64,000 nucleotides of DNA from a virus: positions 1 through 64,000 of IMG/VR virus record IMGVR_UViG_3300036715_002535; one strand, 5' to 3'. The notes under the pieces are model-generated. The model was not told where the DNA came from and made no database searches. It saw only the letters and a program-made list of their open reading frames with translations. This document shows positions 28,330-52,441 of the stretch, piece by piece. Each line of letters begins with the position of its first letter. The first letter of the stretch is position 1. The translations under genes and the position numbers were made by a program.

Positions 28330-28450
28330 CCTATCCTAGAAATTATGCGATACTTTTAGGTTTCGGATTTCAACCGATCCTGCCCTTTGGTAAACTTTCG
28401 CCTACCACGAGGTCTTACAGATCGTCCATCCGCAGTAACCGGTTCGCCAC
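28330..28450 (-). ncRNA. Putative TnpB omega/reRNA scaffold overlapping the tnpB 3' end (boundaries approximate)
   Basis: GCGGATGGA...GTAAGACC...GCA...TGAAATCCGAAA layout resembling IS605 3' RNAs, then an imperfect hairpin. Confidence 0.45.
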
Positions 28451-29534
28451 CGGCCATAACTCTCTTACCCTCTTCTCGCAAGTTGATCGAAGCGTTGACA
28501 TCCCGATCATGCCTTTCACCACACTTGCTACATGTCCAGAATCGATCACTAAGTGACAATTTCTGTTGGTGGTAGCACCTGTGACAGAGCTGGCTGGAAG
28601 GGAACCAACGATCAACCTTGAGAACTACTTTACCAGTCCATCTGGCTTTGTACTGGCACATAGTAACGAAGGTTGACCAGCTTGAGTCCTGAATAGCTTT
28701 TGCTAAGCAATGGTTCTGCGTCATACCTTTCACGTTCAGATCCTCGAACACTAGAACTTGGTTCTCGTTCACTAGTTTCGTGGACAGTTTATGGAGAAAA
28801 TCCTTTCGAACATTCTGGATCTTCTCGTACACTTTTGCTACTTGAATTCTTGCTTTGTCCCTCCCTTTGGAACCTTTCCGTTTTCGTGCTAAATGTCTCT
28901 GTCTTCGTTTCAGAAGTTGTTCGTATCGTTTGATGTTGGGTTTGTTGAATTTGCTACCTTCCGAAGTAGCTACAAACGTAGTCAAGCCTAGGTCAAGTCC
29001 AATTACTCTACCGTGCGTAGAAGGGGTAGGTTCTGGTTGACCATCATCTACCAAGATGGATACGAAGTACCTTCCTGAAGGTTTCTTCCGTACTGTCACG
29101 GTTTTCATCTTTCCTTCAAAGGTTCGATCTTGTACGAACCGAACTTTCCCAATCCTAGGAATCTGAATCTTCTCCCCTTCGATCCTTACCCCTTGAGGGA
29201 ACTGGATACTTTGTTCGGAAGATTTTTTCTTAAATCTTGGGTATTTAGCACGTTTCTCGAAGAAATTTATATAGGCTTGACTAAGATTTCGGCAAGTCAT
29301 CTGAAGTGCTTGGGAGTAGGTTTCTTTCAACCAGGAAGTTTCTTCGTGCTTCTTCATTTCTGGAAGTAGGTTGATCAGATCAATCCAACTCAAACTTTTC
29401 CCAGTTTCCCTGTATGTCTTCTGAGATATCTCTAGACAATGATTCCATAGCCAACGGCAAGAACCAAAATTACTTTCTAACGAAGCTCTTTGAGCTTCGG
29501 TAGGATACATTCGATATTGATACGCTTTCAGCAC
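28356..29534 (-). CDS. tnpB: RNA-guided endonuclease TnpB (IS200/IS605 family), no tnpA nearby
   Basis: N-terminal KAYQYRMYPT HTH, RuvC GLDLG / FEDL / DRDVNA all intact, CxxC...CxxC. Confidence 0.93.
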   Translation of the reverse strand: MLKAYQYRMYPTEAQRASLESNFGSCRWLWNHCLEISQKTYRETGKSLSWIDLINLLPEMKKHEETSWLKETYSQALQMTCRNLSQAYINFFEKRAKYPRFKKKSSEQSIQFPQGVRIEGEKIQIPRIGKVRFVQDRTFEGKMKTVTVRKKPSGRYFVSILVDDGQPEPTPSTHGRVIGLDLGLTTFVATSEGSKFNKPNIKRYEQLLKRRQRHLARKRKGSKGRDKARIQVAKVYEKIQNVRKDFLHKLSTKLVNENQVLVFEDLNVKGMTQNHCLAKAIQDSSWSTFVTMCQYKARWTGKVVLKVDRWFPSSQLCHRCYHQQKLSLSDRFWTCSKCGERHDRDVNASINLREEGKRVMAGGEPVTADGRSVRPRGRRKFTKGQDRLKSET

Positions 29535-32207: not shown

Positions 32208-32238
32208 CCCTTGACATTTAAATCGTCAGGGGTATATT
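32208..32238 (+). promoter_or_regulatory. Palindromic promoter element
   Basis: cccttgac-atttaaatc-gtcagggg-tatatt. Confidence 0.85.
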
Positions 32239-34086: not shown

Positions 34087-34125
34087 AAATATGCCCTTGA
34101 CATTTAAACCGTCAAGGGCATATTT
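34087..34125 (+). promoter_or_regulatory. Palindromic promoter element, extended 15-bp arms
   Basis: aaatatgcccttgac-9 nt-gtcaagggcatattt. Confidence 0.85.
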
Positions 34126-34129
34126 AATT

Positions 34130-35530
34130 ATGGTGAAATTAGAGAACGTCCAACCAGTCCTTGAAGCCATCCGGAACGCGGGTGGCATTCCTATGATCGT
34201 TGGCGGATTCGTTCGCGACCACGTGCTTGGAATAGACTCCAAAGACATCGATATCGAGGTTTACAAAATGACCTCGGACCAGCTTGCCGCCGTTTTAAGC
34301 CGGCATGGGAAGTCGGAAACCGTTGGTGCCTCATATGGGGTCATGAAGCTTTGGATGGATGGGCAGGACTACGACTTCACCCTTCCTCGGCGCGACAACA
34401 AGTGTGGTAGGAACCACAAGGACTTCACGGTCGAGATCGATCCAAATATGACATTCGAGGAGGCAGCTTCTCGACGGGACTTTACCTTCAATTCAATCTC
34501 CATGTGCCCCTTTGCCATGCGGGTCGAAGATCCTTTCAATGGCCTGGAGGATTTGGAGAAGGGTCTCATCCGTCATACTTCCATGGCCTTCGTTGAGGAC
34601 CCTCTTCGGGTTCTTCGTGGCATGCAGTTTGCTGGTCGGTTCGATTTCGAGGTGACTTCTGAAACTTCGAAACTCTGCCAGTCCATGTTCGATACCTACG
34701 ACGCTCTTGCCAAGGAGCGGGTGTGGGTCGAATGGGAAAAGTGGGCGACCAAGTCCATCAAGCCTTCCGCTGGAATTCGCTTCCTTGATCAGACTGGCTG
34801 GTTGAAGCACTTCCCTCAGATCGAAGCGCTCAAGGGTATCCCGCAGGATCCCATCTGGCACCCTGAAGGCGATGTCTTTGTGCACACCATGCACGTTGTG
34901 GATGCTGCAGCTCAGATCGCAAAGGACTTCGTTCCGGAAGAGCGCCTCATCACAGTCATGGCGGCTCTCTGCCACGACTTTGGAAAGGTCACCAACACCG
35001 CCTACTTCGGCAAGTTCTCAACCCGCGCTGATGGCACCCAGTTTGAGGTCGAAGGACCTCGTTTCCGTAGTCATGGGCACGAAGCTGCCGGTGAGGATCC
35101 CACTAAGGTGTTCCTCGAAGGTATCGGCGCTCCTCAGCACCTCATCGCAAAGATCGTCCCCCTCGTTACCAACCATCTGGCTCACTGCACCTTCCAAGGT
35201 GAAGCGCCTACTCCTCGGTCTGTTCGCCGGTTGGCCGTTCGACTTCATCCGGCTACCATCGATCAGCTCATCCCTGTCATCCACGCGGATGCCGCTGGGC
35301 GTCCACCCCTTTCGCAGGAACTCCCTACTACGGCAGTCCAGCTCCAGGAGATGGCAAAGCATGTAAGGGTCGCAGATGGTCAGCCGAAGCCGATCGTGAT
35401 GGGACGAGATCTCATCAAGGCCGGTATCAGGCCTGGACCTGAAATGGGACAGATCCTCTCCAAGTTGTACGAGTTGCAGCTTGATGGTGCCTTCGATAAC
35501 GTAGAAGACGGACTGACCTACGTTAAATAA
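34130..35530 (+). CDS. cca: CCA-adding tRNA nucleotidyltransferase with HD domain
   Basis: VGGFVRD, DIDIE, RRDFTFN, EDPLRVLR, HPEGDV, LCHDFGK. Confidence 0.92.
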   Translation: MVKLENVQPVLEAIRNAGGIPMIVGGFVRDHVLGIDSKDIDIEVYKMTSDQLAAVLSRHGKSETVGASYGVMKLWMDGQDYDFTLPRRDNKCGRNHKDFTVEIDPNMTFEEAASRRDFTFNSISMCPFAMRVEDPFNGLEDLEKGLIRHTSMAFVEDPLRVLRGMQFAGRFDFEVTSETSKLCQSMFDTYDALAKERVWVEWEKWATKSIKPSAGIRFLDQTGWLKHFPQIEALKGIPQDPIWHPEGDVFVHTMHVVDAAAQIAKDFVPEERLITVMAALCHDFGKVTNTAYFGKFSTRADGTQFEVEGPRFRSHGHEAAGEDPTKVFLEGIGAPQHLIAKIVPLVTNHLAHCTFQGEAPTPRSVRRLAVRLHPATIDQLIPVIHADAAGRPPLSQELPTTAVQLQEMAKHVRVADGQPKPIVMGRDLIKAGIRPGPEMGQILSKLYELQLDGAFDNVEDGLTYVK

Positions 35531-46579: not shown

Positions 46580-48391
46580 CTAAGTAGAAAAGGGATCTGA
46601 CATTGGTATTGCTAAGGAGATAACCCGGTCTTTCTCTCTAAACATTAGTCCTAGATTTTCCAGTTTACGTAAAATTCCATCTACATCTCGGTAAGTAAAT
46701 CCATTCGAAAGAAGAATGGGATCCTCCGAAAGGCGGTCAAGTGAAACGATGTCCAAGCAGAGATGGTAGATGCGGCTTTCGTTTTCGTCCAAGGAGTACC
46801 GCGCGGATCTACCCGGTCTCTCATCCTCGACTACTACCTTCTCCCCAAGTCTGTAGTATCTTAGGAGCTTCTGTCCCTTCTTTTGCCGGTAGTTCTGGAT
46901 CCATTCCCTCACCACGCGAGTGAGTTCTAAACTGTAGGGTGCAGAATCAATCCCATCATAGTTGAACTTTGTCGCAATTCTATAGAGCTGTTCTCTATCA
47001 AGCGGGTACAGGAACTGGAAGATTGGTTCTGGATCTCGAATCACAATTCCATATTTCTCCGGGAAGTCGAAGAGCTGGGATCCCCTGGATAGGTAGTATT
47101 CGATCACACCATTCGGAGGATAGAGATGCTGAAGTTTGTAAGCTAGCTCGGCCATTCGCAGGTACTCAGTAGGATCCTCGGAATGGAATCCACGAATGAT
47201 GTTCCAAGTCAAAGGAATGTCCAACCACTTGCAGAACTTCAAAAATCGAACGTTCTGGATTGCTGAAACACCCTTAGAGATAAGCTCGAGGATGGGGGTA
47301 CTAAGACTTTCAATCCCTGGCTGAAGTACCCGCGCTCCGGCCCTCTTTAAAAGTTTCAGATCTTCTAGACCAGTGTTACTCTTGAGTTCGAAGAAGAGCT
47401 CTAGGTTGTACTTCGACTCAATCAACGATTCGAGAATCTTAGTCCCGTCCTTGTAATCGAGGATACTGTCGACTGCGTAGAACTTGTACACCCCATGCTG
47501 ATCTGCAAGACGAAGAACATCGGCTACAACCTTCTCCCAGTTCTTCCTTCGGTAAGGAGTAGTGAAGACATCTTCCGCACAGAATGTGCAAGGGTGCTTG
47601 AAACCCCACCAGCAACCACGACCGGTCTCGTACTGAATGTATACGTCCCGCTTGACCTCATCCAGTTTCAACCTATCGATACGTTCAAAGAACTCCTCGT
47701 GATTGGGATCCTCGAATTGATCACCCTCGACCTTGTTCGACAGGTCTGCAAAGTAGATTCCAAGATCCGAACGAATGGACGCACAGGGATGAGAGGTCAA
47801 ACCTGCCTGCAACCCCTTTACGAACTCCGGTAGAGCTACCTCAGCATCACCATGCCAGATCGCATCCAACCATCCGAAGTTTTCAAGTAGGGCTTCTCCT
47901 ACACCATGGACAAGTCCCGGTCCACCAAAGATGACCTTGATACGAGGATTCAGCTCTTTGATTCTCTTCGCCAGAACCAGGGAAGCAACGAACTGAGCAA
48001 GCACTATTGTGAAGCCCACAATCTTAGGATTTGATTCTACGATCTCAAGAGCCAGCTTCTCCACGAATTCCGGGGTTGCCGCTTTGATGTCGAAGTACAG
48101 ATCAGGAAGAATCTGCTGAAGGGTCTCAGAGTCGTCTATCCCTTTGAAGGTGGGGTTAGTGAAGACCCACTCCGCGTACTCCATGCTCTGACTGATCTCT
48201 AGGTACTGTAGCCTACTGGTTACAAGCTTTCGTTCGTACAGGAAAGAGTAGTAATCCAGGTTCGCGGAAAGAGACCCAACCTTGAGACCCGCTTTACTTA
48301 GAACGGTATGAACGATTCCAAGTTGAATACTTGGGTCCAGAGTAACCCACGGCATCGAAACCGTTAGGAAATCTAGATCCTTTGGGATCAT
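46580..48391 (-). CDS. Cobalamin-dependent radical SAM C-methyltransferase, RiPP-maturation family-like
   Basis: VSMPW...PSIQLG start, B12-binding region (IVGFT...Q...IFGG), ETGRGCWWG.KHPCTFC, QPGIESLS, WNII.GF. Confidence 0.85.
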   Translation of the reverse strand: MIPKDLDFLTVSMPWVTLDPSIQLGIVHTVLSKAGLKVGSLSANLDYYSFLYERKLVTSRLQYLEISQSMEYAEWVFTNPTFKGIDDSETLQQILPDLYFDIKAATPEFVEKLALEIVESNPKIVGFTIVLAQFVASLVLAKRIKELNPRIKVIFGGPGLVHGVGEALLENFGWLDAIWHGDAEVALPEFVKGLQAGLTSHPCASIRSDLGIYFADLSNKVEGDQFEDPNHEEFFERIDRLKLDEVKRDVYIQYETGRGCWWGFKHPCTFCAEDVFTTPYRRKNWEKVVADVLRLADQHGVYKFYAVDSILDYKDGTKILESLIESKYNLELFFELKSNTGLEDLKLLKRAGARVLQPGIESLSTPILELISKGVSAIQNVRFLKFCKWLDIPLTWNIIRGFHSEDPTEYLRMAELAYKLQHLYPPNGVIEYYLSRGSQLFDFPEKYGIVIRDPEPIFQFLYPLDREQLYRIATKFNYDGIDSAPYSLELTRVVREWIQNYRQKKGQKLLRYYRLGEKVVVEDERPGRSARYSLDENESRIYHLCLDIVSLDRLSEDPILLSNGFTYRDVDGILRKLENLGLMFREKDRVISLAIPMSDPFST

Positions 48392-49887: not shown

Positions 49888-50542
49888 TTACTTTCCTTTC
49901 AACCAAGAATCAAGAGGAAATTTCTGTCCTGTACGATGATCCAGGATAAGATTGTCCTGAAACCGGTAAGTTCGGATCTTGTCTCCCCTTTGCCCAGAGC
50001 CAATCTTGTCTTTTCGTTCTCGATTGATGTCTGCGTGAGCATTATTCTTTACCAGCTCCTGAAGTTTCATCTCCAACAGCTCCAATGCAACTACACGATT
50101 CCGGATCTGAGACCTGCCATCGATCCGGACTTGAAGACCGGTCGGCTTGTGGGTCGCAATAACACAGGATTCTACCTTGTTGCGGTGCTGCCCTCCAGGA
50201 CCACTGCCCCGGGTAGTTCTAACGTCTATATCCCGCAAATTTAAAGATGCCGCGCGGTTCTGGAGCTCATAACAGGCCACGGTTATGGTAGAGGTGTGAA
50301 CTCTACCCTTCTTCTCTGTAGGTGGAATACGCTGGAAGCGATGTCCTCCACTCCCTTGAAGAAATTCACCGGCGCTATCACCCTTGATGAGAAGGGAAGC
50401 GAAGCCAGGCGCCTCTTCTAAGAGTTCGGTCTCAAAGTCCCCTCCGCTCCGTCCGACGTAAATAGGCTTTCAGTTGATCCCTGACGAGTAGGACTGCATC
50501 GTCCCCACCCTCAGCAGCTCGAATCTCAAGAATGAGTTCCAT
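49888..50542 (-). CDS. prfA: Class I peptide chain release factor, RF1-type, lacking domain 1; join(50542..50435, 50433..49888) by +1 frameshift, about 217 aa
   Basis: AAGGAGG RBS; MELILEIRAAEGGDDA; after shift GGHRFQRIPPTEKKGRVHTSTITVA, GSGPGGQHRNK, GSGQRGDKIRTY...DHR. Confidence 0.9.
50431..50446 (-). promoter_or_regulatory. RF2-type programmed +1 frameshift cassette
   Basis: CGGAGG-GGA-CTT-TGA-G: internal SD, 3-nt spacer, slippery CUU, UGA stop. Confidence 0.88.
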
Positions 50543-50587
50543 GCTGCACCTCCTTGAGCAATTATAACCCCAAGATCTAAGAATCCG

Positions 50588-50617
50588 CCTTGACAATTAA
50601 ATCGTCAAGGGTATATT
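50588..50617 (+). promoter_or_regulatory. Palindromic promoter element
   Basis: ccttgac-aattaaatc-gtcaaggg-tatatt. Confidence 0.88.
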
Positions 50618-50635: not shown

Positions 50636-51969
50636 ATGCTGACCATAGTGAGCTCCATCATCTGCAGCGAATTCCGGAAGGAGTTTCAATCTCCGGAGCG
50701 TCAGAAGAATGAGGGTTTCTTGTCCGAGCCCAACAAGGCCATGATGGTTCGCTTCAAGCTGACTCCGGATTTCGAAGTCGAGGAAGGCTACCGCAATCTG
50801 AGCATCCTGATCTTCGGCGCCGGCAGAAACTACATCACCGTGATGGCGAAGCTGGACTGGACCGTGATCCAGAACGAAGACATCAACGATGATGGTGAGG
50901 GGCTCAAGAAGGGCAAGGAATACACCGAGGGTGAAACCCCTTGGGTGCACTTCAGTTGCCATGACTCCTGCTGGACCTCGGACGGCGTGGAATCCATCAT
51001 CCAGATGTTCCGCAACCGGATCAACTGCATGGATTCGCGCTTCGATCGTTGGTACGAAACGATGACCCTGACTCCCGAACAGATCAAGGATTTCAATCAG
51101 ATCACTCGCGACACTCGCGAAGGCAAGCTCACCCATTCCCGCAAGTTCGAAACCCTCGAGTTCAAGTTCCCGGTGAAGAAATGAAGGCAGTCACCCGAGA
51201 AGCGGTCCACGCCTACCAAGAGAAGTATGGTTGTGGAATCGAAACCGCCAAGCGTGGGGTTGCACACCAGAATGCCATGGAAGCAATCGAATCCGCCACA
51301 ACCGTAGAAGATCTGAAGGGTGTTCTACTTTTCCTTCTGGAGACGAAATGACCGCTCCCAAGTCGAACGAGCAGATCAGAACCAGGATCAAGAAGGTCTT
51401 CGAGAAAGTATGCCGGAACAATGGATGTACCATGGACGGACTCAGATTTTACTCTCCCAAACAGTGGAAGGAGAGGGGTGAGCGATACGGGCAGAACTCC
51501 GTCATGTCCACCATTTTCGAAGAGCATCAGGGGATGTACTACACGATGAACGCTATCGGATCCTTCAAGCTTCAGAATGAACTGGTGGAAGAGCTCGCAA
51601 AAATTGGTTACTGGTTTGAGCTGGGAAATTCCTGGTACCTGAGCATCTACGAACTGTAGGAGCGTTGTGGCAATCTTACCTCAGAGCGCCCCTTGGTTGG
51701 AGCAGTACTTTACGAATGGTCTTAAGGTGATTCGTCTGTACGCTCGTGCTTGGAAGACCGGGGAAGATCCTTACAAGGATGGTCTCTGGAGAGTCATTCT
51801 TCAACCGGTCAGCTCAAGTGGAGTGGTGCTTGCTGAACAGGCACAAGACTTCGAGTGGACCAAGAAGGACGACGCGATTCCCTGGGCTCAGAGCCAACTA
51901 GGTCCCTCCTTCAGACCCACCCATCAAAGAGTTCTCGGAAGGGCAGATCATGGTAACCGTCACCGATAA
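50636..51969 (+). other. Four hypothetical genes (50636, 51181, 51348, 51667)
   Basis: RBS and ATGA overlaps. Confidence 0.65.
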
Positions 51970-52441
51970 AGAAAAAGCACTGGATCACTTCGATGAGTCG
52001 GATCTTTTCATTTCGATTCTCGATCCTGGTTTCAAGAAGTTTCCTCTCAAAGGATCTAAGGAGAAGCACTTTATTGCTCGATTCGAGGATACAGAACATC
52101 CCTCCGAACTAGAATGGATGAAGATGAACCGAGAGGTTCGATCAATTCTCTCATGGGTTCAACATAAGAAACCTTCTGTCGATACGAAAATTCTTGTACA
52201 TTGTCACGCTGGGGTTTCAAGATCATCCGCAATTGCGTGGCTAATCCTTATCATGCAGGGAAGAGAACCTCTTGAAGCCTTCCAATCTCTTTTCAAATCG
52301 AGATCTCAAATTTGGCCGAACTTAGTTGTGCTGGGTATAGGTTCCAAATTCCTGAACCTCGATCCCGGTTTCATGAAGCTCGCAATTCAGATCGATGAAG
52401 AAATTCGTGAAGGACGTGGTCAACTATTTGGATACTGCTGA
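51950..52441 (+). CDS. CX5R protein-tyrosine/dual-specificity phosphatase-like protein
   Basis: ISILDP, FED, VHCHAGVSRS, WPN. Confidence 0.88.
   Translation: MVTVTDKEKALDHFDESDLFISILDPGFKKFPLKGSKEKHFIARFEDTEHPSELEWMKMNREVRSILSWVQHKKPSVDTKILVHCHAGVSRSSAIAWLILIMQGREPLEAFQSLFKSRSQIWPNLVVLGIGSKFLNLDPGFMKLAIQIDEEIREGRGQLFGYC

Follow-up and report, generated by a model that had tools for sequence, protein, structure and literature searches.

Programmed +1 frameshifting in release factor genes is a textbook case that has so far been confined to RF2. A release factor gene that resembles RF1 and is split by a UGA codon in the same manner occurs in a 111.8-kb viral contig (IMG/VR record IMGVR_UViG_3300036715_002535), estimated to be 56% complete. 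The locus raises the question of whether this interruption is a genuine property of the gene and, if so, what a UGA gate would do in the gene of a factor expected to read UAA and UAG. Positions given below are those of the window, the stretch of 64,000 nucleotides (positions 1 to 64,000 of the record) that was analysed. The gene lies on its minus strand.

An RF1-type gene interrupted by a prfB-like cassette

Re-reading of the locus confirmed an RF1-type release factor gene that is interrupted by a prfB-like +1 shift cassette. Upstream of the gene, a -10-like hexamer (TATAAT, 50561–50566) and an initiation Shine-Dalgarno (SD) sequence (AAGGAGG, 50549–50555), 6 nt before an ATG at 50542, were read from the sequence; no -35 element for sigma-70 was found at canonical spacing on the gene's own strand. 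The ATG opens a frame of 36 codons plus TGA (ORF0, 50432–50542) that reads LEIRAAEGGDDA... and codes for the first strand and helix alpha5 of release factor domain 2. Its full translation, MELILEIRAAEGGDDAVLLVRDQLKAYLRRTERRGL, starts with MELILEIRAAEGGDDA and ends with ERRGL, and its 3' end is CGG AGG GGA CTT TGA G. This end contains an internal SD-like GGAGG (50441–50445), a 3-nt spacer GGA (50440–50438), and a shift site CTT TGA G (50431–50437) in which CUU (50437–50435) is the P-site codon, UGA (50434–50432) the A-site codon, and G the +4 base. The internal GGAGG forms an anti-SD duplex of -10.0 kcal/mol, and no stimulatory RNA structure was detected downstream of the shift site (z = -0.82), as in prfB.

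The +1 frame (49888–50433) continues for 181 codons to a TAA (49890–49888) and codes for the rest of domain 2, domain 3 with its GGQ motif, and domain 4. It contains GGHRFQRIPPTEKKGRVHTST and GSGPGGQ. Translation and alignment with RF1 place a PPT tripeptide, the RF1-type PxT stop codon "anticodon," at 50317–50325 and the GGQ peptidyl-tRNA hydrolysis motif at 50188–50196. Joined to ORF0, the +1 frame yields a product of 217 amino acids, while a plain ORF listing reports just a 130-aa frame with a GTG start (49888–50280). The original prediction, made from the letters of the sequence, had described this layout from the hexamer and SD through the 36-codon frame ending in CTT-TGA to the 181-codon +1 frame and its GGQ. 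Every detail proved correct, including the loss of all but the last 130 residues from the ORF track and the likeness of GGAGG-GGA-CTT-TGA to the SD-3 nt-CUU-UGA cassette of prfB.

Both halves of the gene align with the same protein. ORF0 matches positions 101–134 of the Pfam PCRF model and positions 105–138 of the RF1 model; the +1 part matches PCRF at 153–194, the RF-1 domain, and RF1 models at 167–338. The joined protein is colinear with RF1 residues from about 105 to 335. For the +1 part, the best NCBIfam match is RF1 (prfA, TIGR00019) with 163 bits, which is below the cut-off of 423.25 for that model. The best match of the joined protein in the PDB is a single stretch of Thermus thermophilus RF1 (residues 107–319; 148.7 bits), compared with about 92 bits for RF2 and 62 bits for PrfH. 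Across the junction, "rgl|ete" of the joined protein stands over "mgf|ete" of T. thermophilus RF1 without an indel. Residues by which RF1 reads stop codons are kept, namely the helix tip AEGGDDA (GG..A), the Gln before the loop (RFQR), the PPT tripeptide, and VHTST; the corresponding tripeptide in RF2 is SPF. Domain 1 is missing, with the RF1 alignment beginning near position 105 and the start codon only four codons ahead of the domain 2 motif. The C-terminal helix is likewise absent, and the sheet of domain 2 is shortened by a small deletion. P0048, an ungated family member that shares 53% identity with the window protein, was modelled with AF2 (pLDDT 85.6). The best structural match of this model is ribosome-bound T. 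thermophilus RF1 (TM 0.83); TM values are about 0.75–0.79 with the majority of ribosome-bound RF2 chains and 0.63 with PrfH. The locus product is thus predicted to be a class-I release factor of RF1 type that consists of domains 2–4 only. Assignment to RF1 by the PxT motif, absence of domain 1, and a shift site in domain 2, away from the position used in prfB, had all been anticipated and agree with the PPT loop, the best matches, and the RF1 alignment.

Rescue activity had been raised at the outset; a factor of this sort would resemble PrfH or ArfB and act on damaged or non-stop ribosomes without regard to the codon. PrfH has lost the motifs for stop codon recognition, acts on damaged ribosomes, and is paired with RtcB. 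The window protein shares with PrfH a length of about 200 aa, the GGQ, and the absence of domain 1. It has weak matches to the PrfH (TIGR03072, 68.8 bits) and ArfB (NF006718, 29 bits, GGQ region only) models, and its gene lies among genes of RNA-repair type, one of which codes for a CCA-adding tRNA nucleotidyltransferase (34091–35530, plus strand). However, these scores are far under the cut-offs of 166.65 and 100 bits, the 111.8-kb record contains no RtcB, and the fold of the P0048 model is nearer to RF1 than to PrfH. The short RF1 family strongly conserves the stop-reading elements that are absent from PrfH. Because all of these elements are kept, a rescue role is disfavoured, and we consider it very unlikely.

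The phage encodes a terminase, a portal, and tail fibres, and an IS-type transposase (phrog_506, E = 4.9e-128; 28356–29534, minus strand) lies at the border of the block of structural genes. The stop codons of the phage by crude gene calls are TGA (100), TAA (63), and TAG (41), as expected for the standard code. Stop recoding was considered and rejected, given that 5 of 146 TGA-ended frames continue past the stop. Neither a tRNA or suppressor tRNA gene nor another release factor-like gene was found in the 111.8-kb record. The release factor gene heads a leftward string of small genes without assigned function, which closes with a 603-aa B12-binding radical SAM protein (46580–48391, minus strand), and most window neighbours of the gene have no family match. 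A link to translation-targeting defence, suggested earlier, finds no support at the locus.

A palindromic module with a -35-like sequence, CTTGACAATTAAATCGTCAAG (50589–50609), separates the release factor gene from a divergent ORF (50636–51184). On the plus strand, TTGACA-16-TATATT agrees with the promoter consensus at 11 of 12 positions. The pattern CTTGACA-N7-yGTCAAG has 14 matches in the window at up to two mismatches, against 3.6 expected. Copies are located at 34096, 37160, 38845, 44668, 50589, 52472, 53929, and 58561, and at 32210 with one mismatch, in intergenic spots of the non-structural half. By its sequence and placement, the module looks like a bidirectional promoter or operator common to many small gene modules.

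Two forms of the gate in a family of short RF1 proteins

A protein search returned 2,766 relatives at E ≤ 1e-10. Most are annotated as frames of 190–205 aa with false N-termini of the form GG.F[DE], the product of a +1 reading of GGNGG..CTT TGA. Loci were taken from viral contigs and bacterial genomes (172 in total; the best 80 per collection, not a random sample). A +1 shift is needed in 60 of the 135 loci that carry the N-terminal motif, and all 60 have CTT before the stop. Removal of duplicates left 47 distinct contexts, again with CTT in every one, and an SD core (GGAGG, GGGAG, or GGGGG) lies exactly 3 nt before the CTT in 29 of them. The cassette is conserved in homologues, a check that the original prediction had proposed. 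Gate stops in this set are TGA (39) and TAG (8), never TAA. The +4 base is C in 28, G in 12, A in 5, and T in 2, so that only U is avoided; the weak stop context given by C at +4 does not apply to the window gene, which has G there. Mean anti-SD pairing energy is -6.7 kcal/mol in the shifted class versus -0.93 kcal/mol in the unshifted class with an in-frame TGA. The residues encoded at the SD vary (RG, EH, ER, GL, EC) while the G-rich core is kept, which indicates selection on the nucleotides or RNA.

Some members carry the gate about 10 residues further on, again as CTT-stop, and at least two homologous positions are used overall. The ORF0 segment is conserved in relatives as a frame-0 protein, with starts 4–5 codons before an EIRAAEGG motif and behind an SD. 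The window gene itself comes from one metagenomic assembly, where an interrupted frame could also reflect an indel made during assembly, or a pseudogene in decay, instead of a programmed event. This reading is contradicted by the same CTT-stop junction in 47 distinct, independent sequences at 40–75% protein identity, by conservation of both halves at the protein level, and by an SD with the same placement as that of prfB. For practical purposes, the shared junction and the two conserved halves exclude sequencing error and gene decay, and an artefact is hardly credible.

Relatives that were first classed as in-frame proved to have a gate of their own. Most of them, a sister group, contain an in-frame TGA, typically within GGC TGA and with A, C, or G as the next base, one codon before the stop of the shifted genes and thus at the CTT codon of the window gene. 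The corresponding residue in canonical RF1 is Trp or Phe. Examples include L033–L092 and others (e.g., L035:3001–3654 and L045:3001–3648). These genes are candidates for programmed UGA readthrough in a release factor gene of bacterial type. Two other explanations were rejected. Translation with code 4 is not indicated in these phages, in which flanking frames continue past TGA in 10 of 195 cases, past TAA in 11 of 214, and past TAG in 5 of 79. Hosts that ignore SD sequences are not indicated either, as the start codons of these genes have SDs. When both forms are pooled, there are 90 distinct gates, none of which is TAA, and U occurs at +4 only twice. Judged from these sequences, the family appears to have two ways to gate its expression, a +1 slip and UGA readthrough at a Trp position.

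Phylogenetic placement was obtained with a quick maximum-likelihood search (LG+G4) in which support values are SH-aLRT only. The short proteins group in a single clade (95) adjacent to canonical RF1, and RF2 falls outside. Gates are present in 95 of the 98 family members in the tree, and the three ungated members are sister to the 95 gated ones (97). The window gene groups with the viral loci L013, L014, and L016. TGA and TAG gates are interspersed, with seven changes for eight TAG rows, and close relatives can differ, as do L013 (TGA) and L016 (TAG).

Most carriers are large viral contigs of 100–450 kb. A tRNA gene occurs within 3 kb at 60 of 104 gated loci, and the total of 429 tRNAs includes one that is suppressor-like. 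Dense arrays, which reach 16 tRNAs within 3 kb, surround the short gene in L013, L016, L017, L019–L025, and others. The short gene is also present on chromosomes of Myxococcota (Archangium, Pyxidicoccus, and Nannocystis) and in some other bacteria. Canonical prfA has no cassette in Nannocystis exedens or Archangium gephyra. The prfB cassettes of these species are GGAGG-CAT-CTT-TGA-C and GGGGG-CAT-CTT-TGA-C, respectively, and their short genes have GGGAG-CAC-CTT-TGA-C and GGAGG-GGC-CTT-TAG-C. As a description of the family, the predicted UGA frameshift gate has held; TAG gates, the in-frame TGA form, and the chromosomal copies in Myxococcota had been missed.

No protein partner is universally conserved beside the release factor gene across relatives. 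Large "clusters" of neighbours were discarded as antisense ORFs of the release factor gene itself. A DSP-type phosphatase recurs in one clade only, as the commonest neighbour in the in-frame TGA clade (31 loci; e.g., L071:910–1401). The window has a 163-aa DSP-type Cys phosphatase (HCxAGxxRS; 51950–52441, plus strand) 1.4 kb from the release factor gene, which is of the same size and superfamily as the phosphatase of that clade, with similarity limited to the active site. In N. exedens, one locus (L181, G002:C1:6540714–6541334) has a PrfH-like GGQ domain that scores 162.8 bits, just under the cut-off. This domain is at the C-terminal end of an open frame of 711 codons, which may be a high-G+C artefact or a fusion.

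What the gate may respond to

The probable explanation of the locus is that it codes for an RF1-type factor whose synthesis requires a programmed +1 frameshift of the prfB kind, with output that increases as RF2 activity at UGA becomes limiting. Translation would begin at the ATG at 50542 and proceed to codon 36, where tRNA-Leu would occupy the P site on CUU with UGA in the A site and the GGAGG paired to the anti-SD. Prompt reading of the UGA by host RF2 would release a 36-aa peptide. If the A site stayed empty, tRNA-Leu would slip from CUU to UUU, and translation in the +1 frame would give the full-length factor. The level of the factor would accordingly be low when host RF2 is plentiful and higher when RF2 is limiting. 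The gate is read as being set by the speed of termination at UGA because its geometry is that which, in prfB, pits the +1 slip against RF2.

The RF1 decoding residues predict that the product would terminate at UAA and UAG. Domain 1 of class-I release factors interacts with RF3 and the L11 stalk, and since the product has no domain 1, it is expected to do so independently of RF3. Work cited in a passage of PMC1586002 describes domain 1 as dispensable for peptide release and needed for RF3. A factor of RF1 type cannot read UGA and would therefore be no direct cure for a shortage of RF2. We infer that the benefit may lie in load sharing, in that the product would relieve host factors of UAA and UAG in the infected cell, including the UAA load that RF2 shares.

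True autoregulation would provide a different purpose for the same device. In this case, the short factor would itself read its gate codon, with a specificity broadened to UGA, UAG, and UAA, and would limit its own synthesis by negative feedback as RF2 does through prfB. In its favour, the cassette closely copies the autoregulatory one in prfB. Gates are TGA or TAG, with TAA absent, and the switch between L013 and L016 would be in keeping with a factor able to read the two codons. The loop is also unusual, with a double proline (PPT) where canonical factors have PAT or PVT. A minority of members (L016; proteins P0008, P0011, P0013, P0028, and P0029) have SPT, a hybrid loop between RF1 PxT and RF2 SPF that occurs with TGA as well as TAG gates; by sequence, the stop codon specificity of these members may be altered or broadened. 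Against autoregulation, all residues known to determine RF1 specificity are RF1-like, and a factor that reads U-R-R would risk reading UGG. A match between the decoding tripeptide and the gate codon was sought as well and rejected: PPT is the dominant loop across the family with both TGA and TAG gates, and the two do not co-vary. Autoregulation is therefore unlikely, and the RF1-like decoding residues, together with a PPT loop that does not follow the gate, favour sensing of host RF2 or of termination capacity.

The gate could also act as a fixed attenuator, which would set a low and constant yield of a factor that is harmful in excess, irrespective of release factor levels. TGA is the leakiest stop codon and the usual choice for recoding, which would fit such a role, and a frameshift and an in-frame stop would both lower the yield. 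Overproduction of release factors lowers fitness (PMC12421855). A weak promoter or initiation site would do the same, yet the initiation SDs of these genes are good. Additionally, 95 of 98 members retain the gate over very different hosts, and its stop is always one read by a single factor. We regard a fixed attenuator as improbable, somewhat more so than autoregulation.

Sensing of RF2 by way of a UGA gate remains the preferred reading for the window gene. About 17% of shifted relatives use TAG, which RF1 can read, so that a single "RF2 sensor" account falls short of the whole family. A broader proposal, to which we give slightly less than an even chance, is that huge phages and myxobacteria hold a "termination-capacity sensor," that is, a minimal, RF3-independent factor of RF1 type that is induced by slow decoding of a single-factor stop. 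The gate codon would be UGA where RF2 is sensed and UAG where RF1 is, and a prfB-like +1 frameshift or an in-frame UGA in the position of a Trp codon would serve as the switch. In the boldest form of the proposal, some members with PPT or SPT loops would be omnipotent and autoregulating. If true, this would be the first recoding-controlled gene of RF1 type and a convergent reinvention of the prfB cassette.

The family is a natural setting in which to study whether termination capacity is measured by cells and phages, and cultured carriers exist (A. gephyra, Pyxidicoccus fallax, and N. exedens). It is of interest for recoding and for phage control of translation. Gene callers shorten these genes to about 130–200 aa, and as a result the true protein is missed in phage and myxobacterial annotations.

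Comparison with known systems

A full-text literature search found no published description of a gated RF1-type gene. Release factors of RF1 or RF2 type have been reported from huge phages and recoded phages as part of a translation toolkit, often near tRNA genes (Al-Shayeb 2020, PMC7162821; Borges 2021 preprint), and in this respect they resemble the short genes. Those reports mention no frameshift, in-frame stop gate, or missing domain 1, and the window phage, unlike recoded phages, is not recoded. Compared with canonical RF1 (prfA, TIGR00019), the short proteins share the fold of domains 2–4, the GGQ, a PxT-type loop, the decoding residues, and their grouping in the tree. They differ in having GGQHRNK instead of GGQSVNTT and PPT instead of PAT or PVT, and in lacking domain 1 and the C-terminal helix. 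PrfH is more distant, having lost the stop motifs that are kept here.

Canonical prfA has no known recoding (PMC12421855, PMC5009743). According to a survey from 2025 that covered over 12,000 genomes, programmed frameshifting is shown for prfB and not for prfA, and TAG is absent from 8,164 prfB motifs (PMC12421855), and RF2 is the sole release factor among the entries of the GeneTack survey (PMC3711429). According to a 2016 review of recoding, an early in-frame stop after which the frame continues was unknown in RF2 genes, as was a UAG counterpart in RF1 (PMC5009743). The short RF1 family contradicts three of these published statements, namely that prfA has no such device, that there is no TAG gate, and that an in-frame stop is unknown in bacterial release factor genes.

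The closest parallel is the prfB cassette (SD-N3-CUU-UGA-C), which has the same SD-like sequence 3 nt upstream, a CUU in the P site, a stop in the A site, and a +1 slip within a gene for a class-I release factor. The prfB cassettes of the myxobacterial carriers are nearly identical to those of their short genes. In contrast to prfB, the gene in the window is of RF1 type, its +4 base is G rather than C, and its gate stop is not predicted to be readable by the encoded factor, which combines an RF1-type loop with a UGA gate. TAG gates occur in about 17% of the short RF1 relatives compared with 0 of 8,164 prfB genes (PMC12421855). The site is at codon 36–37 in domain 2 rather than at codon 25–26 in domain 1, and host prfB sites are about 230 residues before the GGQ compared with about 85 in the short RF1 genes. 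The different gene and the different position of the site indicate that this cassette arose separately from that of prfB.
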